Of a DNA stretch of 64,000 bases, positions 45,022 through 63,893 are shown piece after piece. The stretch is taken from the NCBI GenBank assembly GCA_963848085.1, contig CAWKCE010000005.1, forward strand, positions 146,282-210,281, read 5' to 3'. Below the pieces are notes generated by a model, which made no database searches, was not told the origin of the DNA, and saw nothing but the letters and a program-made list of their open reading frames with translations. A program made the position numbers and the translations under genes. The first letter of the stretch is position 1. Every line of letters starts with the position of its first letter. This stretch comes from an uncultured Actinomycetota bacterium. Lineage in GTDB: Bacteria; Actinomycetota; Actinomycetes; JAHEKZ01.

Positions 45022-45039
45022 TCGACCGAGCCCGCCGCG

Positions 45040-46038: not shown

Positions 46039-46054
46039 CTTCGCCCCATTCGGA

Positions 46055-46915: not shown

Positions 46916-47025
46916 CCCTTGGTTATAACCCGTCGACGGCTCCAAGTGCCAATGGGAACCGGCCAGGAAGACCGCCCTCGCTCGGACCTGGCGTCACGGC
47001 CACCATCAGCGCTCCCGGCGCGACC

Positions 47026-48159: not shown

Positions 48160-48385
48160 CTGCTATCCCCGGATGTCTGCACGTGGCTCAGGACAGACAT
48201 GCAGCGCCGCAGCCCGGCGCTGTCGGGCATTGACTGGGGCGCTCGATAACCCGGGACGATCACGAGCCTCCGTCGGCCGGCCGCCGCTGGCGAGACAGGT
48301 GAGGAGCGTGGGGTTACCCGCCCCGGTGCACCGCCCAGCGCTGTGTGAGGGCGAGGCGCACATAACGGCACCTCGGTTCGCTCGG
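48160..48385 (+). repeat. degenerate/composite copy of the 48-64 kb repeat family (conserved boxes GGATGTCT..., GTGGGGTT..., GCGCACATAACGGCACCTCGGTTCG; 5' module rearranged)
   Basis: Alignment by eye to copies at 50066, 52621 etc. Confidence 0.6.
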
Positions 48386-48393
48386 TGGCTCAT

Positions 48394-49383
48394 TCAGTCG
48401 GGGCCGCACGAGACCAGGATCTTGCCCGAACGTCCCCCGCGTGCTGCGTGCGCCACGGCCTCCTTGATTCTGCTCAGTGGGTAGACCTCCTCGACCTCTA
48501 CGGACAGGGCACCCTCGGCGAGCATTGACGCGAGCATCCGATACAACGTCGCGATCTCATCCGGCGGCGTCTCCGCGAACCAGCGGCGCAGCCAGAAGCC
48601 GGTCAAGGTCACGCCCCGGAAGATCAACTCGCGGCCGTCGATCATCGACGACTGGCCACTCAGGATGCCGTAGTTCACCACGGTGCCACCATCGGTCAAG
48701 CAATGCGCCAGGCTCTGGGTAGCCGCCCCACCAACCGCGTCGAGGGCGAGCGGCACGACTCCGTCGCCGATCACATCGCGGACGCGAGCAGCAAGTTCTG
48801 GACCATCGAGGACCACTACGTCGGCCCCGCCAGCACTTAGCGGCTCGATGAGTTGCGGCCTGCGGACCACGTTGATGCTCTTCATGCCGATCTCGCGGGC
48901 GAGCTCGGTGACCAGGCGCCCGACTCCGGAGTTTGCGGCGTTCTGCACCACCCAATGACCGGGCTCTGGAGCGACGAAATGGTGGAGCAACAGATAGGCG
49001 GTGGGCGGGTTGACCCTCAGCATGGCGAGTTGGCGAGGGTCGACTCCGCTGGGCAAGGCAAACACGGAGGCGGCGTTGCAGACCACACGTTCCCGCCAGG
49101 CGCCGGGACCGGGCAGCAACACCCGATCCCCGGCTTCCACGTGTGTCACGCCCGGGCCGACCATCGCCACAACCCCGACTCCTTCTGTGCCCACGACCAT
49201 CGGAAGGGCTGGGGGCGTCGCGCCGTAGTTCCCTGCCAAGTTCTCCAGGTCAGCGGGATTGATCGGGAACAGCTCCGCCTCGATCAGCACCTCACCGGCA
49301 CCCGGCCCACCCGGATCGGGCCGCTCGACAAGCTCGATCACCTCGTCAGCTCTGCCAAACCTCGACAACTGAGCAACCAGCAT
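48394..49383 (-). CDS. zinc-type alcohol dehydrogenase / quinone oxidoreductase (MDR superfamily); ATG start with GAGGGAG SD
   Basis: MDR fold with nucleotide-binding segment VVQNAANSGVG. Confidence 0.8.
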   Translation of the reverse strand: MLVAQLSRFGRADEVIELVERPDPGGPGAGEVLIEAELFPINPADLENLAGNYGATPPALPMVVGTEGVGVVAMVGPGVTHVEAGDRVLLPGPGAWRERVVCNAASVFALPSGVDPRQLAMLRVNPPTAYLLLHHFVAPEPGHWVVQNAANSGVGRLVTELAREIGMKSINVVRRPQLIEPLSAGGADVVVLDGPELAARVRDVIGDGVVPLALDAVGGAATQSLAHCLTDGGTVVNYGILSGQSSMIDGRELIFRGVTLTGFWLRRWFAETPPDEIATLYRMLASMLAEGALSVEVEEVYPLSRIKEAVAHAARGGRSGKILVSCGPD

Positions 49384-49592
49384 GGGCAGCTCCCTCGAAA
49401 CCGACACGCACGGACAAACTCGATCATGCCCCTGCGGCCCCCACAGGAAAGCCGGATCGCACCTATGCGCGGGTCGTCACCTCAGCGGCGGTCCGGCGGG
49501 TCATCCTGCCCGACAAAGCAGGTCCGAATGCCGGTCGACCCCCAGGAAGGCGATCGAGAACGGCACTTCGGTCCGCGGTGGACGGGTGGTGC

Positions 49593-50057
49593 TCAGTCCA
49601 CGACGCTCGGGTTGTCGTCTGGGTTAAACACCGCGATCTCGTCGGCGTTGAGGTCGCACTCTTCTGGGAGGTCGAGGGTGACATCGGCTGAGTCGGGCCG
49701 GGAGTAGCCACCTGTGCCCTTCACCGTCTGCCCCTCGGCGACCAGCGCGCCGGACGGCAGGCGCACCGAGAGCGGGTCGTCGTCCACGAGCTCAGTGCCG
49801 CTGGGCCAGATCGCCGCGACCACCCGGTCCGGTGCATCTGGAGATGCCAGGCCGACGCATCCGTTCTTCACGGTCAGCGTGCCGGCGATCAGCGCATCTA
49901 CGCCTCCTCGGGGCAGCAGGGAGCCGTCATGGACGAGCAGGGTGGCGCTCCCCTGCGTCGTAACCGACTGCCCGCCGCCGCATCCGCTCACCGACGCACT
50001 CAGCACCAGAGCGACGATCACCGGTCCGATGGTCCTCTTGACCTGGATAGCCCCCAC
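49593..50057 (-). CDS. hypothetical lipoprotein (GTG start; signal peptide with VSGC lipobox)
   Basis: N-terminal KRTIGPVIVALVLSASVSGC. Confidence 0.55.
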   Translation of the reverse strand: MGAIQVKRTIGPVIVALVLSASVSGCGGGQSVTTQGSATLLVHDGSLLPRGGVDALIAGTLTVKNGCVGLASPDAPDRVVAAIWPSGTELVDDDPLSVRLPSGALVAEGQTVKGTGGYSRPDSADVTLDLPEECDLNADEIAVFNPDDNPSVVD

Positions 50058-50065
50058 GCGATTCA

Positions 50066-50197
50066 GAATGCCGGATATCGCGCGGATCCGGGACCGGAGC
50101 CAGGGGGTGTCTTAACGATGTGTGGGGTTGCCGGCCTGCGTGCACCGCCCAGACGCTGTGTGAGGGCGAGGCGCACATAGCGGCACTTCGGTTCGGT
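50066..50197 (+). repeat. repeat family copy 1 (reference copy): 5' hairpin CCGGAT-N7-ATCCGG, box GAGCCAGGGGGTGTCTTAACGATGTGTGGGGTT, GC-rich variable centre, 3' box GCGCACATAGCGGCACTTCGGTTCGG
   Basis: Seen directly; non-coding (reading frames not conserved between copies). Confidence 0.85.
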
Positions 50198-50280
50198 CGA
50201 CCGCCGGCTCGTCAGAGGAAATGATCTCCGTTAATGGACACTCACGTCGTAGCAGTTCTGGGGAGGCCCGCTGGTCGGAG

Positions 50281-51300
50281 CTATCTGGTGGGCTGCAGCC
50301 GGACGTGCGTCGCGCCAGTCAGGCCCGGCCCCACCCTCCCGTCGAGCTCGACCCGGACCGCTTCGCGGCCGGTCGCTGAGTCCTGCGTCGCGTAGATCGC
50401 GGTCCCATCGGGCGCCCAGCTGGGCTGCCACACGTGCACGCCCCGGTCGACCGACGTCAGCTGGCGCCCCTCGGAGCCGTCCGGGGCCACGGTCCACAGG
50501 TCCCAGGTGTCGGCCCAGTCCGGCTGGTCGGCGGCGTACTGGACGGTCTCGACGCTGTAGACGATCGCGGATCCGTCGGGACTCCAGTCCGGGTAGTAGG
50601 CGTAGTCCTTGTAGTCGGTGAGCACCGTGGGCTTGCCGCCTGCCAGCGCAACGACGGCGATCGCGGACCCGGTCTCGTCCCCGTTGGCGTCGAAGCGGTC
50701 AATGCCGTAGACGAGCTGCTTGCCATCCGGTGACCACCTCGCGACGTCGACCAAGCGAGGCGAGGAGTCCTGGACGACCTGGCTCATCGTCCCCGACTGC
50801 AGGTCGAGGACCTCGATCGAGGAGGACTTAGGCGGTCCGTCGCGACCGGGTACGTACTGCGTGAACAGGATGCTGAGGCCGTCTGGAGACCACGCCGGGT
50901 AGTCGCAGTCCGAGCAGTCGTGCACGCGCTTCGCTGCAGTACCGTCGGGCGCCATGACCCACAGGCCGGACTTCTGGTCGGCGAAGACGACCCTCGTACC
51001 GTCGGGGGACCAGTCGGGGTGGAAGCCCTGAGCCACCCCTTCGGGGAGCACGTCGCGAGATCCACTCCCGTCGTTGCCCGCGAAGGTCACGCTGTCTCCA
51101 CCCTGAGATCCTTGCCACTGGTACACGAGCAGTGCCCCGGTTGGTACAACCCCGCCGGAGGAGCCCGACTGCGCGGGTGATGAATTCCCGCTTGGCGAGC
51201 CCGGACTCGTGGGCGCGACGGAGCCTCCCGAAGAGCACCCGACCACGACGGCCGCCGTCGCCGCCGCCGCACACGCCAACAGCCTGAGTCGTCGAACCAT
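50281..51300 (-). CDS. TolB-like beta-propeller lipoprotein (PD40/WD40-like repeats)
   Basis: Repeated WSPDG / PDWSPDG blades; lipoprotein signal AAVVVGCSSG; GGAGGG SD. Confidence 0.7.
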   Translation of the reverse strand: MVRRLRLLACAAAATAAVVVGCSSGGSVAPTSPGSPSGNSSPAQSGSSGGVVPTGALLVYQWQGSQGGDSVTFAGNDGSGSRDVLPEGVAQGFHPDWSPDGTRVVFADQKSGLWVMAPDGTAAKRVHDCSDCDYPAWSPDGLSILFTQYVPGRDGPPKSSSIEVLDLQSGTMSQVVQDSSPRLVDVARWSPDGKQLVYGIDRFDANGDETGSAIAVVALAGGKPTVLTDYKDYAYYPDWSPDGSAIVYSVETVQYAADQPDWADTWDLWTVAPDGSEGRQLTSVDRGVHVWQPSWAPDGTAIYATQDSATGREAVRVELDGRVGPGLTGATHVRLQPTR

Positions 51301-51379
51301 CGCGTCGCCCTCCATGGTGGTGCGCGCCCCAGTGGGCGCACGCCCTACCTGGTTTGAGGCACGACCCAGCGCCGAGGTT

Positions 51380-52306
51380 TCACGCCCTCACGGACGAGAT
51401 GCGGCCGGTGTAGGAGAGCGGGAGCTGATGGATGAGCTCCTCGTGGATCCGAGCGGCCACTCCTCCAACGTCAGGCACGGAGGTCTCGCGCAAGCGCAGC
51501 CGCAGACGGTCGCCGTCGCGATGCACGTCGTACGAGGTGTCACTCGGTGGATCTGGCACCTGGTGATGTGTGAGCACGGTCCCGATCAGCTGGTGCGCGC
51601 CGTTGTCGAAATGCTCGCCTGCGGCGGTGCCGAACCAGAAGGCTCCGTTGGCCACCTCGAGCACCCAGCGGGTCTTGCCGCGCGGCATGTGTTCCAGGAT
51701 CGCTTCGGTCTGGTCGCTGAAACGGTGCTCGCGCATCCACGCTGCGCACCAATCCGGCCCGACCAGCTCCTCGCTGACCCAGCGACCCGACATATCCCCG
51801 AGCCGCGACGCCAGTGCGATCCGAGCCCGCCGCAGCCACGTCTTCACAGTGGCCTCGGGGACTCCCAGCTCTCGGGCCACCTGCGCGACCGGGAGGTCCG
51901 CGAGGTAGTGGAGCTTCACCGCGGCGGCGTGCCTCGTCGGCAACGCCGCGATCGCGCGTAGAAGGTCGTCGTCGACAGGGCTCAGGAAGCTGTACGTCTG
52001 ACGCCCGGCCTCCGCTTCGGCCTCCCGAGGCACTCGCCGCGCCTCGCGCTGTGTCGTGCGCCAGGCCAAGCGCGTCGCCACCATCGTGATCCACGCCAGA
52101 GGCTCGTCGCACCTGGCGACGTCGGACCAACGGCGCGCGGCGATCGCATAAGCCTCCTGGACGACGTCGTCCGCCTGCTCTCGGCAGATCGGGCGCAAAG
52201 ACCGGACCAGCCGCGCCGCGTCGGAGGCGTACAGCTGGCCTAGGTCCGGTGGTTGGTCTGCCACCCCGCCATTGTCGGGCCTCTCCGCCGGCGAGCGAAA
52301 GCGCAT
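51380..52306 (-). CDS. ECF-type sigma-70 factor with ~150-aa C-terminal extension; start uncertain
   Basis: Region 2 (DVVQEAYAIAARRW) and region 4 HTH (LPVAQVARELGVPEATVKTWLRRARIAL) followed by extra domain. Confidence 0.7.
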   Translation of the reverse strand: MRFRSPAERPDNGGVADQPPDLGQLYASDAARLVRSLRPICREQADDVVQEAYAIAARRWSDVARCDEPLAWITMVATRLAWRTTQREARRVPREAEAEAGRQTYSFLSPVDDDLLRAIAALPTRHAAAVKLHYLADLPVAQVARELGVPEATVKTWLRRARIALASRLGDMSGRWVSEELVGPDWCAAWMREHRFSDQTEAILEHMPRGKTRWVLEVANGAFWFGTAAGEHFDNGAHQLIGTVLTHHQVPDPPSDTSYDVHRDGDRLRLRLRETSVPDVGGVAARIHEELIHQLPLSYTGRISSVRA

Positions 52307-52620
52307 TGAAGCGCTGAGCCGGAACGTATGACGGCTCCAGCCGAGCGGGGGGAGAGTCCTACCGGTACTACTCGGGTAGCCGGATGACGGAGTGTCAGCA
52401 TGTCGGCCGCGTGGCCGACGAGTTCTCGACGGCCACGCCAAGTCTGACGGCATCGAGCCGCAGTCGCGCTGGCCCCTGCTGGCCGGCCACTGCGGCCAGG
52501 GGCGCTGACCGGCTGCCTAACCGCAGAGACATCACAGAGCGGGACGCAGCTACCGACCGTCTTGGTGCCGCTCACCTGGTGCTCCGACTGCTCCGCCCGC
52601 GTCGGTGCAGTTGAGCAGCC

Positions 52621-52766
52621 TAATGCCGGATCTTGGGCGGATCCGGGACGACGAGCCAGGGGATGTCTTCACGATGTGTGGCGTTACCCGCCCCGGTGCA
52701 CCGCCTCGGGGCATCGCCCAGGCGCTCCGCGAAGGCGCGGGGCATAACGGCACATCTGCGCGTCGC
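52621..52766 (+). repeat. repeat family copy 2 (longer variable centre)
   Basis: taatgCCGGATcttgggcGGATCCGGGAC...GAGCCAGGGGATGTCTTCACGATGTGTGGCGTT...GGCATAACGGCACATCTGCG. Confidence 0.85.
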
Positions 52767-52794
52767 CCGGGGTCCGGACACGTAGCCTGCGGGC

Positions 52795-53148
52795 ATGGAG
52801 AGGACCTCCGACGCCGTAGACGAGTACATGGCGAGCCTGGAAGGCGATGCGCACACGATCGCTCAGGAAGTTCGGCAGATCATCCAACGTGCAGCACCTG
52901 GGATCCACGAGACGCTGCGCTACCAGATGCCGTGCTTCGCGATCGACGGGCAGTACCTGGTCTACCTAGGGGCGTGGAAGAAGCACCTCGGCCTCTATCC
53001 GATCCCGACCCTCGACGGCGAGCTCGAGCGCGATCTCGCGCCCTACCGTGCCGCCACAGACACCGTTCGCTTCCCCTACCGCCAGGCGATCCCCTACGAC
53101 CTCATCGAACGACTCGTCGCGGCACTTGTGGATCGGATACGTGACTGA
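52795..53148 (+). CDS. DUF1801 (YdhG-like) family protein
   Basis: LRYQMPCFAIDGQYLVYLGAWKKHLGLYP motif. Confidence 0.7.
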   Translation: MERTSDAVDEYMASLEGDAHTIAQEVRQIIQRAAPGIHETLRYQMPCFAIDGQYLVYLGAWKKHLGLYPIPTLDGELERDLAPYRAATDTVRFPYRQAIPYDLIERLVAALVDRIRD

Positions 53149-53317
53149 CCGCCAGCCCTGAGACCGAGTGCGTCTGTCGGGCGGGCACGAATGCAGAGCC
53201 GTCTGTCCAGAATCGAGGCAGAACGGCACGTCTGTTCGCGCAGCCATGCGGTCTGCACCGGCCCAGTTGTAGCCTGCGCGAGAGGCCGTCGGGTCGTCAG
53301 GGCTCGACCAGTCCTTG

Positions 53318-53590
53318 ATGGAGGGTTCTGTGGCGATCAAGGTCGTTGTCGAGTTCCAGGCCGAGCCGGGTGCACGCGCGGAACTCATGAGTCTGCTCGC
53401 GAGCATCTCAGCGACACATCAGCCGACAACCCCCGGATTTATCGGCAGCTCGGTGTATGAGGTGCTGGACAACCCTGACGGCGTCATCGAGATCGCCGAG
53501 TGGGAGTCAGCGGAGGCGCAGGCCGCCGCTGCCGAACAAGCGATGGGTCTGGGGGTCGGACCCTCCCCCTACGCGCCGTACCGGGAGTAA
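53318..53590 (+). CDS. antibiotic-biosynthesis-monooxygenase (ABM) domain protein
   Basis: ~90-aa ferredoxin-like ABM pattern (IKVVVEFQAEPGARAEL...VIEIAEWESAEAQAA). Confidence 0.65.
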   Translation: MEGSVAIKVVVEFQAEPGARAELMSLLASISATHQPTTPGFIGSSVYEVLDNPDGVIEIAEWESAEAQAAAAEQAMGLGVGPSPYAPYRE

Positions 53591-53592
53591 CC

Positions 53593-54357
53593 ATGAACAA
53601 AACTCTGCTGATCACCACCGCAGCCGCATCGGTGCTGGCAGTCGCCGGCTGCACGTCCAGCGCCAGTGACAACGCCGCACCCGCCTCACCGGCGGCGGCC
53701 CCCACCACGCAATCGCCGAGCCCAGCTGCTGTCGACGTGCCCAACTGCCCGAATCCTCATGGCGGCAGTTGCCTCGGGACGCTCGAACCGGGCGAGTACC
53801 AGACCACCACCTTCGCGCCGCAGCTGACCTACACCGTTCCAGCGGGGTGGACCAACCTGGAGGACCTACCGGGCAACTTCCTGCTCGAGGACGTGAAAGA
53901 CCCCCAGCCGGACAATGCTCTCGGCGGCAGCTACTTCGGCATATACACCAACGTCTACGCGGCTGCGATCGCCTGCAAGGAAACCTCACAGAAGGGCGTC
54001 GGCATCAAGCCCAAGGAGTTGGTCGCCTGGTACCAGTCCGTGCCCGGGCTCATCGTTTCCACGCCCAAGAAGGTGTCCGTCGGCGGACTCCGCGGACTCC
54101 AAGTCGACCTATCCGCCAAGCCGAAAGAGGAACCGTGCACCTTCGACGGGTACGCAGCGGTACCACTCATCATCGGCGACGGTGTCTCCCAGGTGCATCA
54201 CGTCGTAGGCAAGGGGCAAGACGTCCGGTTGGTCATCTTGGGCTGGAACGACGGCAACGTGACCCTGGAGATCACCAACGTGGACAAGCAACACAGCGCC
54301 AAGGACTACCGAGCCCAGGTCCAGCCGATCATCGACTCGATGGAGTTCAAAGCCTGA
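53593..54357 (+). CDS. hypothetical lipoprotein (signal + AGC lipobox); true start internal to ORF-track entry
   Basis: MNKTLLITTAAASVLAVAGCTSS...; GGGAG SD. Confidence 0.6.
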   Translation: MNKTLLITTAAASVLAVAGCTSSASDNAAPASPAAAPTTQSPSPAAVDVPNCPNPHGGSCLGTLEPGEYQTTTFAPQLTYTVPAGWTNLEDLPGNFLLEDVKDPQPDNALGGSYFGIYTNVYAAAIACKETSQKGVGIKPKELVAWYQSVPGLIVSTPKKVSVGGLRGLQVDLSAKPKEEPCTFDGYAAVPLIIGDGVSQVHHVVGKGQDVRLVILGWNDGNVTLEITNVDKQHSAKDYRAQVQPIIDSMEFKA

Positions 54358-54540
54358 CCACAGGCTGGAGCGGAGCCCGGCCCGGGCCCGGAGCGAGCGA
54401 GCCACGGACCGGACCCGCGCACGGCCTGTAGACCCAACGGCCCATGCCTTGCCGTCCCCCTTGTCGGCGTAGGTTGCGGTGGCCAGTCGGTCGGCGAAGC
54501 GGTGCCCAGTCACGCGCACACTTTGCCAGTGCCAGCCGCG

Positions 54541-54677
54541 CATACTGCCGGATATTGCGAGCAAACGGGACGGGGGCCCAGGGGGTGTCTTAATGATGTG
54601 TGGGGTTCGCCGCCCCGGTGGCCCCGCCCCCAAGCTCCGTGTGGTAGGAGCGCACATAACGGCACCTCTGTTCGGGC
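54541..54677 (+). repeat. repeat family copy 3
   Basis: catactgCCGGATattgcgag...CCCAGGGGGTGTCTTAATGATGTGTGGGGTT...GCGCACATAACGGCACCTCTGTTCGGG. Confidence 0.85.
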
Positions 54678-54771
54678 TCGGACTGAAGAGACGACCTGAT
54701 CCTGGCGGCACCCAGCGGTGGGTCCGCCCTGCTAGAGGGCCGGTCCCTCGGCGCTCGTTCATGCATGACTG

Positions 54772-55443
54772 TTAGGTCGGCGTGTCCCCGAACCGCGTCC
54801 AGTGCCCTTCGGAGACCACGTCGGAGGAACCGTCGACGACCCTGATGGCCGTCTGTTCGTCGATGGCATAAGCCGGGATACCGATGTCGGCGGCCCAGCG
54901 CTCTGCGTCGGCCTGACTGTTCTCCGGGAAGGCGTCCAGGTGCGGGAAGATCGAGAAGTCGACGACTCCCAAGGTGCGGTCGTCCAGGGCTGCTGGCCAC
55001 TCCACGAAGTCCGTTCCGATCCGGGGTGTCATCACCATGCTGCCGGCGCTCACACCCACCCAGACCGTGTCGAGTAGCGACGGCAGTAGCTCGGCGAGGC
55101 CGGACTCCTTCATCCAATGGCACAGGTACGTCGCGTCACCACCGTCGACCAGGAGTGCGTCGGCCTCCCGAACCCAGGGAACCCATCGCTCCGCCCCGAT
55201 GGTGGGAAGCGCGGTCAACTCGAGGACTCCGAGCGATGCCCAGCCCAGGCCTGACAGGTGGTCCCATCCGGGATCGGCGGCCACGAAGCCCCGCACCGAG
55301 GTCGGACCACACATCGGGTGGCCCCATTGCCCGGTGGGGATGCAGAGGGCGTGGCACTCGGTGATCGGCTTGCCGAGAAGCTGCACGAGCGCTGAGTGGA
55401 TGCTTGGGTTCGTGACTCCGCCCGACGTCAGCAGCAGCCGCAT
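54772..55443 (-). CDS. peptidase E (S51) / class-I glutamine amidotransferase-like family protein
   Basis: MRLLLTSGG... and GVSAGSMV nucleophile elbow; GGGAGG SD. Confidence 0.65.
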   Translation of the reverse strand: MRLLLTSGGVTNPSIHSALVQLLGKPITECHALCIPTGQWGHPMCGPTSVRGFVAADPGWDHLSGLGWASLGVLELTALPTIGAERWVPWVREADALLVDGGDATYLCHWMKESGLAELLPSLLDTVWVGVSAGSMVMTPRIGTDFVEWPAALDDRTLGVVDFSIFPHLDAFPENSQADAERWAADIGIPAYAIDEQTAIRVVDGSSDVVSEGHWTRFGDTPT

Positions 55444-55627
55444 GGGGCCTCCCAATTCGTCTCAGGCTGAAGGTAACCATTGCCAGTCAATCTCATGAGT
55501 CACATCAGCCGAACGCGACGGGCCGGTCGCTCGTCAGCAGGCGATCCAGATCGGCACTTCGGCTTCGCCCCGCCAATCCCCAGAGGGAACACCCGTCCTG
55601 CTGGGCTGAGGGCGGCGGGTCGCGGAC

Positions 55628-56212
55628 TCAGGTGGTGCGGCGGTAGCGGATGTGGGTGGTCAATGGTGAGTGCAGCACCTCGGCGGGCTCAAAGCCGAAG
55701 GACGCCACCCCGTCGAAGATGCGCTCGCCCGAACCGAGCAGGACGGGCGCGATGTCGAGGGTGAGTTCATCGATCACGCCGGCGATCAACGCCTGTCGGA
55801 CGGTCGAGGCTCCACCGGCGATGTCCACTCCGTTGCCGCCAGCCGCCTCACGCGCTGCGGAGTAGGCCGCGGCGAAGCCCTCTGTGACGAAGTGGAACGT
55901 CGTCCCTCCGTCCATCTGAATCGAATCTTGGCGGTGATGGGTCAATACGAAGACGGGCGCGTGGTACGGCGGCTCGGGGCCCCACCAACCAGACCAGGCC
56001 TCGTCCCAGTCCCCGCGAATCGGGCCGAACATGTTCCTGCCCATTACATACGCACCTCGGGGGCGCATGAGCCACTCGTTCGCGACCTTGTCCGCGTCGT
56101 TGGCACGCGGGTCGCCGATATGCCAGCCATGCAGCTCCCGCCCCCGCTTTCCCAGGGGCTCCTCCCGGCTCTGATCCGGCCCAGCGACGAACCCGTCAAG
56201 CGCGATCGACAT
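55628..56212 (-). CDS. dihydrofolate reductase-like protein (RibD C-terminal domain family)
   Basis: MSIALDGFVAGPD... and GGASTVRQALIAGVIDELTLDIAPVLLGSGERIFDG signature. Confidence 0.75.
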   Translation of the reverse strand: MSIALDGFVAGPDQSREEPLGKRGRELHGWHIGDPRANDADKVANEWLMRPRGAYVMGRNMFGPIRGDWDEAWSGWWGPEPPYHAPVFVLTHHRQDSIQMDGGTTFHFVTEGFAAAYSAAREAAGGNGVDIAGGASTVRQALIAGVIDELTLDIAPVLLGSGERIFDGVASFGFEPAEVLHSPLTTHIRYRRTT

Positions 56213-56404
56213 ATGGCAAGTGGTGTCCGACACCAAGTGCTCCCAAGCAGTTGCGAAGTGGAAGAAGTCGCCCGGACGATATCGGGCGGCATCTTCCGGG
56301 GCCACCGAACGCGAATGCCGGAGTGGCTGTGCACCCGACGTCCCCTATCGGCAGCTGCCGATCGCGCTCCTCGGCGTTGGATGGCACCGCGCTCGACGTT
56401 GTAG

Positions 56405-56758
56405 TCAGTCGGCCTCAAGGTGCCCGAAGCGGCGAACCTCCTGGGGCCAGCCGCAGGCCTCCGCGATCTTTCCCGCCCACATCGTGGCAGCCTCGTCATC
56501 AGCCACGTCCACCACGGTAAACCCGCCCAAGATCTCCTTGGTCTCCACGAACGGTCCGTTGGTGATCACCAAGGTGCCGCTGGTGGTGTCGGCGCTGTAG
56601 ACCGGGCCGTCCTGCTCCAGCCCACCGGCGAAGAGGTACGCGCCAGCAGCCTTGATCTCGTCCACCACCGCCTCGGCGAGCGGTCCGCGCGCGCGGAACC
56701 ACTCCTCGGTGTGGTCGCCCACCCACTGCTGGTTGAAGTAGATGAGGTACTCGGCCAT
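56405..56758 (-). CDS. YciI-like (YCII-related) domain protein
   Basis: MAEYLIYFN...GPLAEAVVDEIKAAGAYLFAGGL...GGFTVVDV pattern. Confidence 0.65.
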   Translation of the reverse strand: MAEYLIYFNQQWVGDHTEEWFRARGPLAEAVVDEIKAAGAYLFAGGLEQDGPVYSADTTSGTLVITNGPFVETKEILGGFTVVDVADDEAATMWAGKIAEACGWPQEVRRFGHLEAD

Positions 56759-56913
56759 GACCACTCCTTCTCCTCCGGGGACCCAATGGCCCGCGTCGCC
56801 TACCCTACGAACGGCAACAGGCGAATCCGACTCGGTCACACCAGAGCGAACACCGGGCATCGGCCTGGCAACGGCGAGTCCTCCCGCTCATCGGCATGAG
56901 CGCCGCCGGAGGC

Positions 56914-56990
56914 CGCGCATACTGCCGGTGATCTCAACCGGTCGATGCAACACCCTCGTTGTTTGGGGGTCGTGTCGTCGGGAGGTTGGG
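56914..56990 (+). repeat. relic partial copy of the repeat family (shares 15-mer CGCGCATACTGCCGG with copy 3)
   Basis: Seen directly; rest diverged. Confidence 0.4.
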
Positions 56991-57120
56991 ATGGTCAGGT
57001 TGTCGGTGGAGGAGAAGGCGGAGATTCGGAAGTTGGCGGGGGCGTAGCGGCCCAATGGCTCGGCGCGTCGCAGCTATAGAGTCACAACCCACGAGTCGTG
57101 CGAGGCGAAGGAGACTTGCG

Positions 57121-57591
57121 GTGGAGATCAAGGAACTCGGGCACCTGGTTCTCTACGTGCGCGACCTCAAGGCGTCGGTGCACTTCTACCGCGACGTCCT
57201 GGGCTGGCGACCGATCCTCGGCGGAGACGACGACGAACCGCTGCCGTTTCCGGCCGCCGCCTTCAACGCGCCGTCCAACCGCACCCACCACGAGCTGCTG
57301 CTCATCGAGGTCGGCAAGGACGCCACTGCGATCCCGCACGGCCGACGCGTGGGTCTGTACCACTTCGGCCTCAAGGTCGGCGACAGCGACGACGAGCTGC
57401 GCGAGGCACTCGCCACACTGCAGGAGAACGACGTTACGATCCTCGGTTCCAGCGACCACACGGTGACGCACAGCCTCTACATCGCCGACCCCGACGGCAA
57501 CGAGGTCGAGCTGTTCATCGACGTCCCCGGCGTCGACTGGAAGAACGACCCGGCGCTCATCGCCGCCCCGGTCAAGCCCCTCGTGCTCTGA
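57121..57591 (+). CDS. VOC/glyoxalase-family protein (GTG start, AAGGAGA SD)
   Basis: (V)EIKELGHLVLYVRDLKASVHFYRDVLGW...HHELLLIEV...GLYHFGLKV pattern. Confidence 0.75.
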   Translation: MEIKELGHLVLYVRDLKASVHFYRDVLGWRPILGGDDDEPLPFPAAAFNAPSNRTHHELLLIEVGKDATAIPHGRRVGLYHFGLKVGDSDDELREALATLQENDVTILGSSDHTVTHSLYIADPDGNEVELFIDVPGVDWKNDPALIAAPVKPLVL

Positions 57592-57709
57592 ACGAGCCCG
57601 CTGATCCTGACAAGGACGTCTATCCTTCCAACGCCGGGCGCTAACTCCCCGCGACGGTCAGTGGGCGCCGATCCCGAGCGGGCCGCCAGTGTGACGGATC
57701 AATGAGCGC

Positions 57710-57843
57710 GAATGCCGGATATTTGGCGGCCCCGGGACCACGAGCCAGGGGATGCCTTAACGATGTGTGGGTTTGCCGGCCCAGGCGCCCCGCCCAGGCG
57801 CTCCGCGAGGGCGGGGCGCCGACAACGACACGTCGGTTCGGGT
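57710..57843 (+). repeat. repeat family copy 4
   Basis: GAATGCCGGATatttggcGGCCCCGGGACcacGAGCCAGGGGATGCCTTAACGATGTGTGGGTTT...CGGTTCGGG. Confidence 0.85.
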
Positions 57844-58381
57844 TGGGCCTGCCGTGACACCCGGTTTCAGCTCGGGCCGTGCCACCGGACTTCAGCCACT
57901 TCCGACCGGGACGCTCTTGAGACCAGCGGACCGGACGACTGGTGTATGCCCAGGTCGTCGGCGGTGACCCGTCACCCAAGGGCGCCGAGCAGACCGAGTC
58001 GGCAAGCCCCGGTGCTCCTCATGCCGACATTCGCCCGAGGCTGACCTTGCGTACAACAGGTCAGTCGGCCGCAAGGCGCCAGGGTTCGCCCGCCGACGCT
58101 CATCGTCCGCCAGGCGCTTCGTCGCGACCGGGTCAACGACGCTAGGACCGGCGAAACGGTCATACAACGAGCGACGGCCACCAAACAGGCACAGGCGCCA
58201 TCCCAAGGCCTCCCCCGCAACCCCACACCAGTTGGTCCTTCTCGGCTTCCCGCCTCCGGGGCATTCCCTCTGGACACCCGAGACGCTAGACAGCCTGACC
58301 CGGCGCTATCCGGCTCTCGACATCGAGCCGTGGCTGGCCGCTGCGCCCTTGGACTGATCACGGCCACGCACTGAGGGCGAG

Positions 58382-59113
58382 TTACGACTCCAGCTCCCAC
58401 AGCTTGCGGTAGTAGGCGATCCGTTCCTCGTCCGGTTCGATTCCGTAGGACTCGAAGAACTCACCTTGATGGCCTTCACCGAAGTTCCAGTCGAGGCTCA
58501 AGGAGGCGATGGCCAGGTCCGCCCATCGGTCGCCCACCGCCAAGTCACCGAAGTCGACGTTGCCCGTCCACTCCCCGGAGGACGAGATCAGCGTGTTGGG
58601 TGCACACGCGTCCCCGTGGACAACCACCGGCTCATCCACTGGGGGGCGGGGGCCGATCGATGGAGGCGTGCGACCGACCCAGACCTCCGATGTCCAGCCG
58701 GCTGGGAAATCATCGGTGGGGATCGAATGAATAGATCGAAGGCCCACGGCGATGGCCCGGATCGCCTCCGGCCGACGGGCGCGCCAGTTGTCTCCGACAG
58801 CGTGCTCGCCGGGCAGCGCCTCGGTGACAAGCCACTGGGCCGCCTCGTCCCCGCCGAAGTCGAGCACCCGCGGAGCCGGATGGCGCTTCGAGATCCACTC
58901 GAGCCGCACCTTCTCTCGCCCCAGATCAACACCGGCCGACCGCGGATACCACTTCACATACGTATCGCCGGCACAGAAGGTCAGACCGCCAAGTTCGCTG
59001 CGCCAGATGAGGTCCTTGGGACGCGCCCCGGCTAGCTGGACCACGATGTCCGGCACGGGATCATCCCCCAGGGAGTGAAGGGCATCCAGGTCCGAGAGGT
59101 CGCTTCCCGTCAT
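58382..59113 (-). CDS. aminoglycoside phosphotransferase (APH family, APH(3')-like); alternative TTG start at 59146
   Basis: VVHGDACAPNTLI and VDFGDLAVGDRWADLAIA motifs (Brenner and DFG-like). Confidence 0.8.
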   Translation of the reverse strand: MTGSDLSDLDALHSLGDDPVPDIVVQLAGARPKDLIWRSELGGLTFCAGDTYVKWYPRSAGVDLGREKVRLEWISKRHPAPRVLDFGGDEAAQWLVTEALPGEHAVGDNWRARRPEAIRAIAVGLRSIHSIPTDDFPAGWTSEVWVGRTPPSIGPRPPVDEPVVVHGDACAPNTLISSSGEWTGNVDFGDLAVGDRWADLAIASLSLDWNFGEGHQGEFFESYGIEPDEERIAYYRKLWELES

Positions 59114-59317
59114 GGCATCAGGTTCCCCGTCGCGCGGGCGTTTCAACTATTCCCGCCCGCTGGCCTTGCGAGCAGCGACCTCGACGCGGACGTGGTACGC
59201 CTTCCACCGACAGGCCAGCCGGCCTGTCGGGTCGCCGGGACCGAAGGCCTGCCCATGCCCACGGACCCGACACAAGACGGTCAGGTGCGCCGATAATCGG
59301 ACCCACGTGACGGCGGT

Positions 59318-60025
59318 TCAGTTCTTCGTCGCAGGGGACTGGGCGACGCATACGACTCCGGTGTTGCCGTCCTGGTCGGCGATCACGGTGAGCGACGGCG
59401 CGTCGCTGTCATCGACGACCGTCCCACCCGCGGCGACGGCCGCGGCGATTCGTTGCTCGGCCACCTCGGGCGCCACATAGACCTCGACGTGGAACCGCTG
59501 ACGCGGGGTCTCGTGCTCGTCGGCGTCCCCGAACCACAGGTTCGGTACCCGACCCGTGGCGTCCCGGATCTCGTCGCTGGGGGACCCGTGGCCCTGGGCT
59601 CCGGCGTTCCCGGTCAGCAGGGCGGCCCACACCGGGGCGATGGTCGCGGAGTGCGCCGTGTCGAGGCCGAGCTCGATGACGCTGACCGAGGCGGGGTCGG
59701 CGTCGACCTTGTGCTCGGCGGCGATCTCGGTGATCCGTCGCGCGAGGTCGACGTCCTGCTGGGTCACCCATTCGACGACGTGTTCGGTGCCCTCGTCGTC
59801 GCGGTAGATGGCGTCGGCGCTGACCAGCTTGAGGTCGACGTACCCGTCGCCGATCGCCACGCTCGGGTGGTGTCCGAGCGCGTCGCCCGCCTCGCCTACC
59901 GTGGCGACGAACCGTGCGCCGGTGCCGAAGTCGTCGACCAGGTAGCGGGCATGCAGTCCCTGTGCCAGCTTGCGCCAGTCGGTCAGCTTGGCCTCGGCGA
60001 TCTCCTCGCCCTTCAGCATGTCCAT
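59318..60025 (-). CDS. fusion protein: pterin-4a-carbinolamine dehydratase (PCD/DCoH) domain + VOC/glyoxalase-like domain
   Basis: N-terminal ...LTDWRKL...GDALGHHPSVAIGDGYVDLKLVS (E-x-HHP-like motif); C-terminal glyoxalase-like half. Confidence 0.6.
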   Translation of the reverse strand: MDMLKGEEIAEAKLTDWRKLAQGLHARYLVDDFGTGARFVATVGEAGDALGHHPSVAIGDGYVDLKLVSADAIYRDDEGTEHVVEWVTQQDVDLARRITEIAAEHKVDADPASVSVIELGLDTAHSATIAPVWAALLTGNAGAQGHGSPSDEIRDATGRVPNLWFGDADEHETPRQRFHVEVYVAPEVAEQRIAAAVAAGGTVVDDSDAPSLTVIADQDGNTGVVCVAQSPATKN

Positions 60026-60182
60026 GTTCGGGGACCCTAACTGTGATTCAGCCGAAGCGGGGCTGGGTGCGCCGCGGGGCCCTGACTGCGCGTCAGCTGC
60101 GCTTTGCGTCGATCGCTCGGTCGACGATGTTCCCTCCGGAATATCGCCACGTCCAAATCCCGCCCGACCACCGGCGATGCCT

Positions 60183-60295
60183 CATGCCGGATACTGCGCG
60201 GATCCGGGACCGGGCCAGGGGATGTCTTGACGATGTGTGGGGTTAGCCGCCCCGATGCTCTGTGAGGGGGCGCACATATCGGCACTTCAGCGCAG
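60183..60295 (+). repeat. repeat family copy 5 (shortest)
   Basis: catgCCGGATactgcgcGGATCCGGGACcGGGCCAGGGGATGTCTTGACGATGTGTGGGGTT...GCGCACATATCGGCACTTCAGCG. Confidence 0.85.
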
Positions 60296-60367
60296 GTCCT
60301 CTGACCGTCCGGTGTGCCCTCATTGAGTGTCCATGCTGGTGTGCCTGACACGAGGTCGCTGGTTGCC

Positions 60368-61690
60368 CTATGCCGTCGGGTCGACGACGTGTCCGACGAA
60401 GACCGGCGTTTGAGTGGGTTCGTGGACCACTGCCCAGGCGTACGGCCGGTCTACTCCCATCGTCTTCGTGGTGATGGGACCTGAGACAAGCATTCCGATA
60501 CCGGTGACGGCGGCAGCTTCGGACCCTTCCTCGTCGACGGTGATGTTCGCGCGATGAACTGCCTGGCTGACCGTCACTCCGGGAGCAATACCGGTGAGGT
60601 CACCCAGACTGCTGAGACCCAGCGCGCTCAGCGCACTCAGCAGCTCCAAGTCCGTGCCGGTGTCCCAGCGAGGCAGGGTGAGGTCCACCGCTTGGGTCGC
60701 GTCGGCCGCTACCGGGGCGGTGGCGACCGGCAACAGAGCGTTCAGGGCGGGCAGGTCGCGCACCACGGTTCGCGGGAGCACGACGCGCATGGTCAGCTCG
60801 TCGCCGACGTACGGCAGGGTGATCCGTTGCCACCGGTCGTTCTCGGTGTACCGGACTGGCTCGGTCGTCTGGCGCATCATCTGTGCCTGCACTGACGAGC
60901 CGGCGGAGGTTGTGAAGAGTCCGGTTGTGGTGGCTGAGGCGGAGAACTGGGTGACCCAGGTGGCCTTGAGGTAGACGGCGTTGGCGAGCACCATCAGCGT
61001 GTTGGGGTCGAGCTGGTCGAAGAGTCTCTTGATCCGGCCGTGAGTCTGCTTCGTCACCCAGGCGTTGATGGTCTCTGTCGCTGCCGGGGAGCCGAAGTCC
61101 ACACTGTCTGGGTGCGCTCCGTACTGGGCAGCGAGCAGGTCGAGGAATGGCTGTTCGACCGAAGGTCCGAATCCGTCAGCCACGAACAGCCCGTTGGCGA
61201 CCGCGACCACGGGGGTCGGGGCCGGCTGCTCGCTCGGTGGCGGTGGCGGGGTCACCAGGTGCGCCGTGAGTGCGTTCAGAGCCTGGTGCGGTGAACCTTC
61301 GGCGCGGTTGCTCGGCGGAAAACCAAACACAGCGTCGATCTGGGTGGCAGTCTCCCCGCGACTTCCCGCGCGCAACATCCCGAAGGCCACCGCGATCGAC
61401 AGCGGCGACACGGTGAAGTTGGCTGACGGTGCGGCAGCAAGAGCGTGCAGATGCGAGGCAAACGCGTCCATCCCCGCCACAACTTCGGGCAGGTCGGGCG
61501 CTTCGGACAGCGAGACGACGGCTCTGTCGACCTGGGACACCCTGATCGGCCCCGCTGGTCCACCTCCACCCGGGGCCGCTGACTGGGAACACCCCACCAG
61601 GGCCGGCGCCGCCCCGACTGCGAGGAGACCGAGCATCGTGAGCATGGTCCGACGAGAGAGCAGTTCGGCCGAGCGGTCAACCGGTTGCAT
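60368..61690 (-). CDS. serpin-family serine protease inhibitor with Tat-like/lipoprotein signal; true start internal to 482-aa ORF
   Basis: NAVYLKATWVTQF..., RCL-like C-terminal region; N-terminal SRRTMLTMLGLLAVGAAPALVGC. Confidence 0.7.
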   Translation of the reverse strand: MQPVDRSAELLSRRTMLTMLGLLAVGAAPALVGCSQSAAPGGGGPAGPIRVSQVDRAVVSLSEAPDLPEVVAGMDAFASHLHALAAAPSANFTVSPLSIAVAFGMLRAGSRGETATQIDAVFGFPPSNRAEGSPHQALNALTAHLVTPPPPPSEQPAPTPVVAVANGLFVADGFGPSVEQPFLDLLAAQYGAHPDSVDFGSPAATETINAWVTKQTHGRIKRLFDQLDPNTLMVLANAVYLKATWVTQFSASATTTGLFTTSAGSSVQAQMMRQTTEPVRYTENDRWQRITLPYVGDELTMRVVLPRTVVRDLPALNALLPVATAPVAADATQAVDLTLPRWDTGTDLELLSALSALGLSSLGDLTGIAPGVTVSQAVHRANITVDEEGSEAAAVTGIGMLVSGPITTKTMGVDRPYAWAVVHEPTQTPVFVGHVVDPTA

Positions 61691-61872
61691 CAAGAACGGC
61701 CACCTTCCCCTACTCCACCTACGACGACTGGGCGACCTCGCCCGTTCCTCGACGCCGCAAGTACCTCCCGACATGCGGAAACACAGCCGACCTCCGCCAC
61801 TCGGTGGCGGCAGCACAGTGGTGGCGTGTCAACAATCGGTGCCAACTGTCGCACGCGCCGCCCAGGCAAACC

Positions 61873-61993
61873 GAATGCCGGATGCCGGGCTGTTCCGGGG
61901 AGAAGCGAGTCAGGGGACGGATGGGCGATGTGTGGGGTCGCCCGCCAGGTGCTCTACGAGGCCGGCGAGGCACACATGACGGCGCATCTGCAC
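61873..61993 (+). repeat. repeat family copy 6 (more diverged)
   Basis: GAATGCCGGATgccgggctgTTCCGGGGAgaagcGAGTCAGGGGAcGGATGGGCGATGTGTGGGGTcg...GCACACATGACGGCGCATCTGC. Confidence 0.8.
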
Positions 61994-62019
61994 CGGGTCC
62001 GATCCAGATCCGAGTTGCG

Positions 62020-62481
62020 CTAGTCCTCGATGACATCCAGACCCTGCTCTCGGAGCAGTGCCAAGCGATCGAGCATGCCCTTCAGCACTTCCGGGGAGTG
62101 CCCCTCCCACTTCTCCACCTCGCTGACTACCAGCAGCGGATGGCGGGTGCGGTAGGACTGTGTGATGTTGCCGGGGAACTTCTTGTTCGTCACGTTGGGG
62201 TCGTCCTCGAAGGGGCCGGTGGGCCTGACGACATAGATGTAGCCCCGCTCTCCGGTACCCGCGCGAGCAGTCGCCAGCTCCGCCCCCCATGCCGCGGTGT
62301 CCACGAGCGCGGTGAAGTAGATGTTGTTCGACACCCTGCCTTCGTGGAAGTTGGAGCCGTAACCGGGCAGGAGCTCTTCTCCGACCGTGAGCGCGGATTT
62401 CGTTCCGTGGTAGAAGGGTCCCTCGATGTGGTCGCAGTTCTCGTAGGTAACCGGAATGTGCGTGCTTCTGGGTTCTTCCAC
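62020..62481 (-). CDS. arr: NAD(+)--rifampin ADP-ribosyltransferase (Arr); GTG start; the 317-aa ORF-track entry is over-extended
   Basis: EGPFYHGTKSALTVGEELLPGYGSNFHEGRVSNNIYFTALVDTAAWGAELA...GYIYVVRPTGPFEDDPNVTNKKFPGNITQSYRTRHPLLVVSEVEKWEGH matches the Arr family along its length; GAGAGGA SD. Confidence 0.85.
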   Translation of the reverse strand: MEEPRSTHIPVTYENCDHIEGPFYHGTKSALTVGEELLPGYGSNFHEGRVSNNIYFTALVDTAAWGAELATARAGTGERGYIYVVRPTGPFEDDPNVTNKKFPGNITQSYRTRHPLLVVSEVEKWEGHSPEVLKGMLDRLALLREQGLDVIED

Positions 62482-62665
62482 ACGTGTCCTCTCGAATTCA
62501 TCCGACGCTCTGGGTGGCACCCGAATCTGGCGGCTATCACCTACGGCCGGGTCGGCAGGCGCGAACGATACAACGCCCCTCAAGGGAAGCACGCCAGACA
62601 TTCCTTGGCCCGGGTCCCGAAGGACCCATGACCCTCGTCCGCCCAACCCTGGAATAGTCCCTGTC

Positions 62666-62965
62666 ATGGGCGACCCGCCGGAACTTCGCCACAGCGGACA
62701 CTGGAGGATCGCTGTTTGGGCCCTTCGAGTGGGGTACGTCGGGCTGGCCGTCGCCATTGCCGGCCTCATCGTGACGTCGTTGGGATACACGCCGTGGGTG
62801 CTGGCCGTTGGGGTGATCATTTGGCTCGCCGCCGCAGCCGTCACGTTGGCGGGGTTCTTCTGGTCCCGGCACGAGCTTCCCGAGCCACGACCTGGGTTCT
62901 GGTCGATGCGGTTCATGCTCGTCCACGACACGGTCCACGCCCAGTCGCCGTCCCAGCGGTCCTGA
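62666..62965 (+). CDS. hypothetical small membrane protein (2 TM helices)
   Basis: MGDPPELRHSGHWRIAVWALRVGYVGLAVAIAGLIVTSLGYTPWVLAVGVIIWLAAAAV... Confidence 0.4.
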   Translation: MGDPPELRHSGHWRIAVWALRVGYVGLAVAIAGLIVTSLGYTPWVLAVGVIIWLAAAAVTLAGFFWSRHELPEPRPGFWSMRFMLVHDTVHAQSPSQRS

Positions 62966-63070
62966 CAGCCCATTCCTCGGCCGCTGCGTCCGCCGTACGC
63001 CAGTCTCCCGACTCGTCCACCGACCCGGATGTGCCACCACCGATCGGCTTCGAAGGGTGCCCCGTATCAC

Positions 63071-63190
63071 TGGAAATTGGGGACTTCCGGGACTCACGAG
63101 TCAGGAGATGTCCTCGCGACCTGTGGGGTTCCCCGCCCACCGCCCGGGCGCTCCGCGAGCTACGGGGAACACATACCCGCACATCTTGCG
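63071..63190 (+). repeat. repeat family copy 7 (5' hairpin module diverged)
   Basis: ...TTCCGGGACtcacGAGTCAGGAGATGTCctcGCGAcctGTGGGGTTcc...ACACATAcccGCACatcttgcg. Confidence 0.75.
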
Positions 63191-63267
63191 CGCCTCACCG
63201 GCAGGCCACGTACCTCGGGGGCCTGGTCAGTAGTGCGTTCGCGGCGTGACGGCCGTAGATTCCCAGG

Positions 63268-63621
63268 ATGGGCCTGGAATGGGAGCAAGTGGTCGTGGAC
63301 GCCGCAGACCCGGTGATGTTGGGCCGGTGGTGGGCTAACGCCCTCGGATGGGTCGTGGTGAACGACGCGCCGGAAGAGTTCGAGATACAACCCGCGGCGG
63401 ATCGGCTGCCCGGACTGATCTTCGAACCAGTCGGAGAGGCGAAGGGCGGCAAGAACCGTCTTCACTTGGACTTCCGGCCCGACGACCAGCAGGCCGAAGT
63501 CGCGCGCCTCCTGGGCCTCGGCGCTCGGCACGCGGACGTCGGCCAGGGACAGCAGTCCTGGGTCGTGCTGGCAGATCCCGAAGGCAACGAGTTCTGTGTG
63601 CTGTCATCCAAACGCACGTAG
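63268..63621 (+). CDS. VOC/glyoxalase-family protein (bleomycin-resistance/glyoxalase I-like fold)
   Basis: MGLEWEQVVVDAADPVMLGRWWANALGW...RLHLDF...VVLADPEGNEFCV. Confidence 0.7.
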   Translation: MGLEWEQVVVDAADPVMLGRWWANALGWVVVNDAPEEFEIQPAADRLPGLIFEPVGEAKGGKNRLHLDFRPDDQQAEVARLLGLGARHADVGQGQQSWVVLADPEGNEFCVLSSKRT

Positions 63622-63709
63622 CCACCTCAGCCTCCGTCCATGCTCGGTAGGCGACGGCAGCCAATCCAACTGGGGGCAGTCCGGGCTGTCCGGCACCCGA
63701 GCGATCGTC

Positions 63710-63835
63710 CCGGATGTTGGCCGGCTCCGGGACCCACGAGTCAGGGATGTCCCAGCGATGCGTGAGGTTGGCTGGTGAAGGGACGCCCCTCCAATTGGAG
63801 AGCCAGTCGCGTGCGCACAGAACGGCACTGCGGGG
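63710..63835 (+). repeat. repeat family copy 8
   Basis: CCGGATgttggccGGCTCCGGGACccacGAGTCAGGGATGTCccagCGATGcGTGAGGTT...GCGCACAGAACGGCACTGCGGGG. Confidence 0.8.
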
Positions 63836-63893
63836 CGGTCAGTTTGGACCAGCTGAAGGCGGTCTGGCTCTGGCCGGGGCCGGTCTCGTTCGA

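Follow-up and report, generated by a model that had tools for sequence, protein, structure and literature searches.

What is the short non-coding element that recurs, always in the same orientation, between the accessory genes of this chromosomal locus, and does it mark the boundaries at which those genes are exchanged? The element at 50066-50197 of the window (the whole stretch of 64,000 nucleotides analysed here) is one copy, c50, of a repeat family whose members measure about 110-140 nt. As argued below, the best explanation is that the repeat is a lineage-restricted recombination site, distinct from the attC sites of integrons, which delimits exchangeable cassettes and is acted upon by a recombinase encoded elsewhere; the probability of this reading is put at roughly 55%.

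The array and its repeat

To the left of the array lie the ribosomal-protein and rpoBC operons and four tRNA genes, followed by genes for YajQ, a sulfotransferase, an M48 peptidase and an EamA transporter. To its right, beyond a copy (c10) situated just past the window end, after a YCII gene, other assemblies of the same organism carry genes for a cupin, two P-loop proteins, MST/DinB, two VOC proteins, RidA and a methyltransferase, and then the nuo operon. From the array start at 48.2 kb, the GC content drops from 0.72-0.75 to 0.65-0.68. The GC skew on the plus strand is slightly negative throughout 40001-64000, which fits the minus strand being the leading one.

Ten intergenic copies, all in one orientation, lie at 48.2-63.8 kb of the window, nine of them found with an nhmmer profile (c48, c50, c52, c54, c57, c60, c61, c63 and c9, all nine on the plus strand) and the tenth being the mini-copy c49. 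The box ii pattern CAGGGGNTGNCTTNANGATGTGTGG occurs five times against an expectation of 0.01, and the orientation is identical in 26 of 26 copies when those of related arrays are included. The segments between the repeats (48391..63703) carry one to four genes each, in either orientation, with 13 of the 18 genes on the minus strand. They comprise ADH, followed by c49 and a lipoprotein; a PD40 propeller with an ECF sigma factor; DUF1801 with a 285-aa secreted protein; an S51 peptidase, RibD_C, YCII and a glyoxalase; a 142-aa protein, APH and a pterin dehydratase/VOC protein; a serpin; the rifampin ADP-ribosyltransferase Arr with a 99-aa ORF; and Glyoxalase_6. Repeats occupy convergent, tandem and divergent intergenic regions without ever changing orientation, which argues against a role as promoter, leader, terminator or cis-regulatory element. 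No promoter or terminator consensus coincided with the copies, and sigma-70/ECF promoter and intrinsic terminator readings were rejected.

The layout of the family is a 5' inverted repeat CCGGAT-N9-ATCCGG, a box ii GAGCCAGGGGATGTCTTAACGATGTGTGGGGTT, a GC-rich centre and a box iv GCGCACATAACGGCAC. All of these are found in c50, so that the four-part architecture described in the first-pass annotation is borne out: the hairpin arms lie at 50071-50076 (CCGGAT) and 50086-50091 (ATCCGG), box ii at 50097-50129 including its core TGGGGTT (50123-50129), the variable centre at 50130-50170, and box iv, GCGCACATAGCGGCAC, at 50171-50186 with CGGCAC at 50181-50186, before a tail TTCGGTTCGG at 50187-50196. 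The view that the element is non-coding was likewise correct, given that indels disrupt every reading frame; small ORFs starting from the conserved ATG of AATGCC or ACGATG were considered and rejected because neither frame nor length is conserved. The 5' hairpin was described as a conserved 6-bp stem around a 7-nt loop that differs in each copy. The arms are present as described, but the loop measures 9 nt and, far from being hypervariable, has a consensus, ATTGGGCGG; the stem is broken in c54 and in two copies at recent junctions, which read AAACGG for ATCCGG.

Conservation is strongest in three blocks, namely TGGGGTT at the end of box ii, CGGCAC in box iv and CAGGGG at the start of box ii. 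The first two flank the centre, which varies in sequence and in length (about 25-65 nt). Box ii holds two direct GATGT motifs and box iv the inverted motifs CACAT...ACATC, so that GATGT(C)...GATGTG to the left of the centre and CACAT...ACATC to its right form nested inverted repeats. Beyond CGGCAC comes a short tail, of two types, which moves with the cassette to its right.

The individual copies depart from this layout to differing degrees. The first, c48 (48225..48390, plus strand), adjoins the core gene EamA and has its core TGGGGTT at 48309-48315 and CGGCAC at 48366-48371; its 5' half is degenerate, with a box ii lacking TGTCTTAAC and an insertion of 30 nt, and its orthologue in the sister species (8590-8718 of L003) is degenerate too. 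Its centre is 93% identical to that of c50. A reading of c48 as a clean 3' half-site was rejected, as it is a full copy that has decayed. Just to its left, a box-ii-like fragment GGATGTCTGCACG (48168..48206, plus strand) lies within a perfect inverted repeat, ATGTCTG-N15-CAGACAT; the fragment is probably the remnant of a further copy, or the inverted repeat may be a separate binding site for the same factor. The mini-copy c49 (49525..49568, plus strand) keeps only the two repeat ends in its 44 nt, GAATGCCGG...CCCCAGGAAGGCGATCGAG AACGGCACT. The remaining copies, all on the plus strand, are full elements. Copy c52 (52622..52760) has its core, TGGCGTT, at 52679-52685, CGGCAC at 52748-52753 and a tail of type B, ATCTGCGCG, and c54 (54544..54680) has a broken 5' hairpin, its core at 54601-54607 and CGGCAC at 54660-54665. 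In c57 (57711..57846) the core reads TGGGTTT (57768-57774) and the box iv block CGACAC (57826-57831), and c60 (60181..60290) has a short centre between its core at 60238-60244 and CGGCAC at 60280-60285. They are followed by c61 (61876..61996; core TGGGGTC, 61933-61939), c63 (63067..63195; core 63124-63130) and the diverged c9 (63704..63840; core TGAGGTT, 63763-63769; CGGCAC, 63823-63828).

Pairing of ATGTG in box ii with CACAT in box iv, as claimed, is possible. Folded as single-stranded DNA, the part from box ii to box iv gave z-scores of +0.19 to -2.6 against shuffled sequences in seven copies, with means of -1.4 on the plus and -1.2 on the minus strand. This 3' part folds somewhat better than shuffles, and it shares with attC sites the form of an imperfect palindrome with a variable terminal part that can fold as single-stranded DNA. 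The covariation expected in both stems turned out to be weak. With a model comprising the 5' hairpin, both stems and a centre helix, 68.7% of cells in a 17-copy alignment were paired against 66.6% in shuffles. Pairs with changes on both sides numbered 12 against 6.9 expected, a figure reached by 9 of 500 shuffles and weak by the tool's own calibration. RNAalifold returned no compensated helix of note, and mean base-pair probabilities across the copies did not exceed 0.42. Some copies can be drawn with two short stems separated by a 6x6 internal loop, CTTAAC/AACGGC, in a register that varies from copy to copy and with weak covariation. Overall, the 3' palindrome is real, and the support for selection on one specific fold is weak.

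These folding results bear directly on the idea that the repeat is a structured small RNA gene, for instance one resembling Y RNAs, or a cis-regulatory RNA. The G-T pairs of the stems fall on the plus strand, one compensatory change is seen in the 5' hairpin of c63, and c54 (54573-54683) gives a full-length though weak match to YrlA (22.6 bits, E = 0.0072 in a 181-nt search), in an alignment that displays T-arm-like and D-arm-like hairpins. The Y RNA-like YrlA family (RF02553) is expected to neighbour an rsr (Ro) gene. However, its gathering score of 69 is far above 22.6, c50 and the other copies gave no match, no Ro/TROVE gene was found and no Rfam family matched at gathering thresholds; the resemblance of c54 was judged to be chance. 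Moreover, the whole element folds as RNA no better than shuffles on either strand (z about 0), the best model leaves 31% of cells unpaired, no promoter or terminator consensus accompanies the copies, and these stand in every intergenic context. An RNA gene is, on this evidence, very improbable.

Strain differences and switch points

Four array variants from two species were compared, three of them in assemblies of the same species and one in a sister species. The same-species assemblies are 98-100% identical in the DNA they share and yet have different genes between the repeats. One contig (ERZ25039499 contig_38246, which is both L027 and L038) is 98.9% identical to the window over 40820-48371, 100% over 48306-49568 and 98.4% over 63107-64000. 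Between the last two stretches, the 13.5 kb of the window are replaced by 5.8 kb of different single-gene cassettes, including three acetyltransferases, HIT and DUF4386 among others, each followed by a repeat, and c48 is separated from the ADH gene by two extra genes. Two more cassettes appear in a third assembly, L039 (98.3% identical). Short-read contigs obtained from other samples confirmed the gene arrangement of the window itself. The sister species L003 has the same flanks, with proteins about 83-97% identical to those of the window (on the left, the sulfotransferase 83%, M48 97% and EamA 82%); its array shares the serpin gene (86% DNA identity), and the genes between its repeats are otherwise unrelated to those of the window. 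To the right of the last clear repeat, gene content differs as well (8462-9281 of L027, reverse complement, against 2266-3564 of L007): the two P-loop genes of the window lineage, of 198 and 173 aa, are replaced in L027 by 820 nt with a copy of the 5' half of the repeat, and a paralogue 78% identical to the 173-aa gene lies inside the array of L027.

The positions at which the variants switch from one sequence to another are central to the interpretation. Of five informative switch points, four coincide with one or other of two short blocks already named, TGGGGTT (box ii end) and CGGCAC (box iv). In the first event (position X1), the window reads decayed 5' arm, GCGTGGGGTT, centre 48 and ADH, and L038 reads the same 5' arm, GCGTGGGGTT, a different centre (x), DUF3500, glyoxalase, a 5' arm like that of c57, GCGTGGGGTT, centre 48 and ADH. 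A unit of 2.4 kb is thus present in one and absent from the other, with GCGTGGGGTT on both of its sides and the crossover within those 10 nt. The second event, also at X1, separates L039 from L038: centre x and all that follows rightward is shared, everything leftward is unrelated, and the switch occurs at G|TGGGGTT. In the third (position X2), the extra unit of L039 relative to L038 consists of a tail, genes for a 79-aa protein, HAAS and PadR, a 5' arm and a centre, and the crossover lies within the 16-nt GCGCACATAACGGCAC. The likeness between the window and L027 ends just after ...AACGGCACTT of c49 (event 4) and resumes at 63107, exactly at |GATGTCC in box ii of c63 (event 5). No nucleotides were added or lost at the junctions of events 1-3. 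What events 1 and 3 added or removed was a single gene segment together with one complete repeat, and the same probably holds for event 2. The junctions of DUF3500 and glyoxalase recur in two independent assemblies, L038 and L039. The 5' half of c57 moves with the glyoxalase gene on its left and is found at another array position in these same two assemblies (91.5% identity).

The array, the content differences among strains and the positions of the switch points are direct observations, and they support the idea underlying the first-pass annotation, namely that a non-coding imperfect palindrome marks cassette boundaries in a co-oriented array. The mechanism which we favour is that the repeat serves as the recombination site bounding cassettes in a chromosomal array placed between the EamA/M48/tRNA side and the cupin-to-nuo side of the core genome. 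Such a site would consist of a 5' arm (box ii with an optional hairpin), a variable GC-rich centre of about 45-65 nt and a 3' arm (box iv), and a circular intermediate carrying one repeat would recombine with a repeat already in the array, on one side or the other of the centre, that is at TGGGGTT (X1) or at GCGCACATAACGGCAC (X2). A circular one-repeat unit recombining in this manner reproduces events 1-3 exactly. The exchanges would be made by a dedicated site-specific recombinase encoded elsewhere in the genome. By analogy with integron attC and CTX-phi attP, where one strand of a folded site is exchanged and replication completes the process, a single strand might be exchanged at one edge of the non-homologous centre, or within the folded hairpin, with replication completing the product; exchange of a single strand at one edge would explain the two alternative crossover points, which flank the long centre and adjoin inverted copies of one short motif.

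Several observations count against a site-specific reaction. The window and both flanks yielded no recombinase, crossovers map to two positions, and two further switches lie at outer box edges, that of box ii in c63 and that of box iv in c49. Several switch positions within conserved blocks are also expected from homologous recombination. The repeats could then be passive and have spread for some other reason, for example as insulators or as scars of old mobile elements. Their homology would serve recombination that is RecA-dependent or needs only short homology, as well as gene conversion, both inside the array and with DNA acquired from related strains, and no dedicated recombinase would exist. 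In agreement with this, the switch points lie where identity runs longest, in box ii and box iv, at two positions at least and perhaps four; the strains are about 1% diverged, which leaves time for rare events; the lack of a recombinase gene nearby is as expected; and the near-identity of the centres of c48 and c50 is matched by that of a whole c54-type repeat. The latter, at 54544-54665 of the window and 4542-4691 of L039 (reverse complement), is about 97% identical and lies between different genes in the two strains, which points to gene conversion among repeats. Since its similarity begins exactly at TGCCGGAT, the pair suggests either conversion of the whole repeat or a third junction, located at the repeat's 5' end.

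On the other hand, exchanges confined to 10 and 16 identical bases are short for RecA-dependent recombination. The invariant short blocks around a centre of free length look more like selected protein-binding sites than like the homogenisation left by conversion, and the common orientation of every copy also speaks against passive homology, which further leaves unexplained how unrelated genes in both species came to be flanked by repeats. Passive repeats are, on balance, less likely, and are the main rival reading. Site-specific cassette exchange is preferred. The cassette reading itself has to accommodate segments of up to four genes in mixed orientation, the weak covariation for any fold, and the fact that Arr and Glyoxalase_6, adjacent cassettes here, are neighbours with no repeat between them in an unrelated actinomycete.

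This last fact could also be taken to favour insertion of the repeat as a non-autonomous transposon, MITE-like or IS200/IS605-like, into the intergenic DNA of the island with a transposase encoded elsewhere. The repeat is a discrete unit of about 130 nt with short complementary ends (TGCCG...CGGCA) inside which GATGT.../...ACATC are nested, the c54-type copy occurs in two contexts with similarity from a sharply defined start, and strand-specific transposition of a single strand would fit the uniform orientation. Like MITEs and REP/BIME elements, it is short, non-coding, palindromic and intergenic, with nested inverted repeats. Unlike them, it is found in one array and in one orientation, and change proceeds by replacement of whole segments: terminal inverted repeats and dispersed copies in both orientations were not seen, the end complementarity extends over merely 5 nt and is broken in c63, no target-site duplications occur at the copy ends, and no copies were found beyond the array. 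What differs among strains is whole gene segments with a repeat, never bare repeats. Transposition of the repeat is accordingly improbable.

Relation to integron and Xer sites

The first-pass annotation had proposed that the repeat resembles attC, with TCTTAAC and GTTCGG as R''- and R'-like cores. In an attC site, the inverse complementary cores R'' (RYYYAAC) and R' (GTTRRRY) lie at the ends and the boundary is at the G|TT of R', extrahelical bases and an unpaired central spacer impose the choice of strand, and in a complete integron intI, attI and Pc adjoin the cassettes. A RYYYAAC...GTTRRRY pair 45-135 nt apart was found in 0 of 21 copies on either strand, even when one mismatch per box and 5 of 7 complementary positions were allowed, apart from a single relaxed match in one degenerate copy, L3a. 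The heptamer before GATGTG has one to five mismatches to RYYYAAC, GTTCGG belongs to only one of the two tail types, and the two proposed cores occur in a minority of copies and do not pair with one another. Nor are TTAAC and GTTCGG the boxes of exchange, since the crossovers map to TGGGGTT and CGGCAC. There is no single fixed G|TT boundary; the exchanges occur in GCGTGGGGTT and GCGCACATAACGGCAC, about 55-70 nt apart. With no core pair, no conserved TCTTAAC or GTTCGG, weak covariation and no integrase found, membership of the attC family is not sustained.

Integron arrays nevertheless are the closest system in function, both the sedentary chromosomal ones with homogeneous repeats, as in Vibrio cholerae, and CALIN. 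As in these, non-coding sites of 110-140 nt in one orientation stand between small accessory genes at a fixed locus, the middle of each imperfectly palindromic site varies, content differs in close strains, genes are gained or lost together with one site, and the cargo includes genes of resistance type. In contrast to attC, the repeat lacks the RYYYAAC/GTTRRRY cores, has two crossover positions at the edges of its centre where attC has one at G|TT, and carries an extra 5' arm with a hairpin of its own; in contrast to integron arrays, a segment can contain as many as four genes of mixed orientation, and no intI, attI or Pc adjoins either array end. A true CALIN with divergent attC sites and its integrase elsewhere in the genome would account for the co-oriented palindromes between small genes and for the variable content. 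The absence of the R''/R' pair from every copy, crossovers away from a 3'-end G|TT, multi-gene segments of mixed orientation and the lack of intI in the window and flanks make it scarcely credible. IntegronFinder surveys, moreover, found no complete integron in Actinobacteria (PMC4889954, PMC9024848).

A recombinase encoded away from its sites, as site-specific exchange at this array would entail, is familiar from modules moved by Xer recombinases, and dif-like sites with upstream accessory sequences, on which the XerC/XerD of the host move modules as in IMEX, Acinetobacter pdif or cer/psi, were considered. A host-encoded recombinase would explain the lack of a local gene. Like Xer-dependent modules, the cassettes comprise one to four genes bounded by short sites, and like cer/psi the repeat has about 100 nt of conserved sequence on the side of the XerC arm; exchange of a single strand beside a non-homologous centre, as proposed above, would recall CTX-phi. 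The left arm of box iv, GGCGCACATAA, with the 6-nt CGGCAC resembles a XerC arm and central region, agreeing with the Frankia dif arm at 7 of 11 positions, the X2 crossover interval includes this 6-nt block, and the right arm gives a 9/11 palindrome in two copies.

In true dif sites, however, the XerD arm is the conserved one, and here it is the right, XerD-type arm that is not conserved; the dif-like reading of box iv was rejected because of this. A dif site of 28-30 bp, with a XerC arm, a centre of 6-8 bp and the conserved XerD arm TTATGTnAAnT, was not recovered: across the copies, 4-8 of the 11 left-arm positions and 2-6 of the 11 right-arm positions agree with Frankia dif (PMC3025954), and the arms have a mean palindromy of 4.65 of 11, compared with 2.9 for controls. 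TGGGGTT, a second crossover block with no dif-like form, accounts for half of the exchanges mapped. All sites are direct repeats where pdif sites alternate in orientation, and the locus is not at the replication terminus. Xer-mediated movement is thus very improbable. Domains of recombinases or integrases were sought in every ORF of 44-64 kb and selected ORFs of 1-44 kb, in about 10 kb of right flank up to the nuo operon, in the 7-kb left flank of L038 and among the unannotated cassette proteins, and none was found in any of these.

Distribution, cargo and neighbouring sequence

The repeat family was found only in this lineage. The box ii pattern had no match in 185,579 species genomes or in viral contigs, and a blastn search with c50 against plasmids and phages returned none. 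A scan of metagenomes retrieved only the array copies of the same organism (L001, L002) and of the one sister species, and metagenomes containing this organism yielded no copies outside the array. Contigs with EamA homologues of up to 68% identity (L004, L005, L015-L020) show neither synteny nor repeats, and those with Glyoxalase_6 homologues (L024-L026) carry no repeat. On L024 (ENA ERZ25039527 contig_13560, 9376-10366), which comes from an unrelated actinomycete, the homologues of Arr and Glyoxalase_6 (82% and 85% DNA identity) lie next to each other in divergent orientation, with 168 nt between them; in the window the 99-aa ORF and c63 separate the two genes.

The cargo of the array consists of small accessory genes, among them Arr, APH, VOC, acetyltransferases, YCII and HIT. 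Two cassette genes encode a predicted Arr-ms rifampin ADP-ribosyltransferase (62020-62481) and a predicted APH-family phosphotransferase (58382-59146), and several proteins resembling VOC/bleomycin-resistance proteins are also encoded in the cassettes. A full-text search of the literature found no account of such an array. We put forward tentatively, at somewhat less than even odds, that the array represents a new kind of integron-like gene capture in Actinomycetota, in which cassettes would circularise and re-insert at a non-attC site of about 130 nt. A remote recombinase would exchange a single strand beside the long non-homologous centre, on either side, or in a folded hairpin, which would give the two crossover points; the cargo includes Arr and APH. 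Its importance would lie in a chromosomal array of an uncultured actinomycete that behaves as a cassette platform although its site fails the sequence criteria of attC. If a dedicated recombinase is at work, it would constitute an independent solution to cassette capture in this phylum, the one that makes most antibiotics, with a cargo that already includes a rifampin ADP-ribosyltransferase and an aminoglycoside phosphotransferase. Searches based on attC miss arrays of this type; the site described here could be leveraged as a search model for further arrays and as a recombination tool.

Two other repeats of the window deserve mention. Nine tandem units of 18 nt, similar to GCCTCAACGACCGGAGCC, lie at 12504-12711 inside a minus-strand ORF (12503-13447) of the ribosomal-protein region, and probably encode a repetitive low-complexity protein segment. 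Finally, a second and unrelated intergenic repeat family, CGCCGAGTGCGCACTCGACGGGGCTGGGTGTCC, is present at 3387-3512, 4521-4598 and 35617-35692, in tandem as well as dispersed copies.
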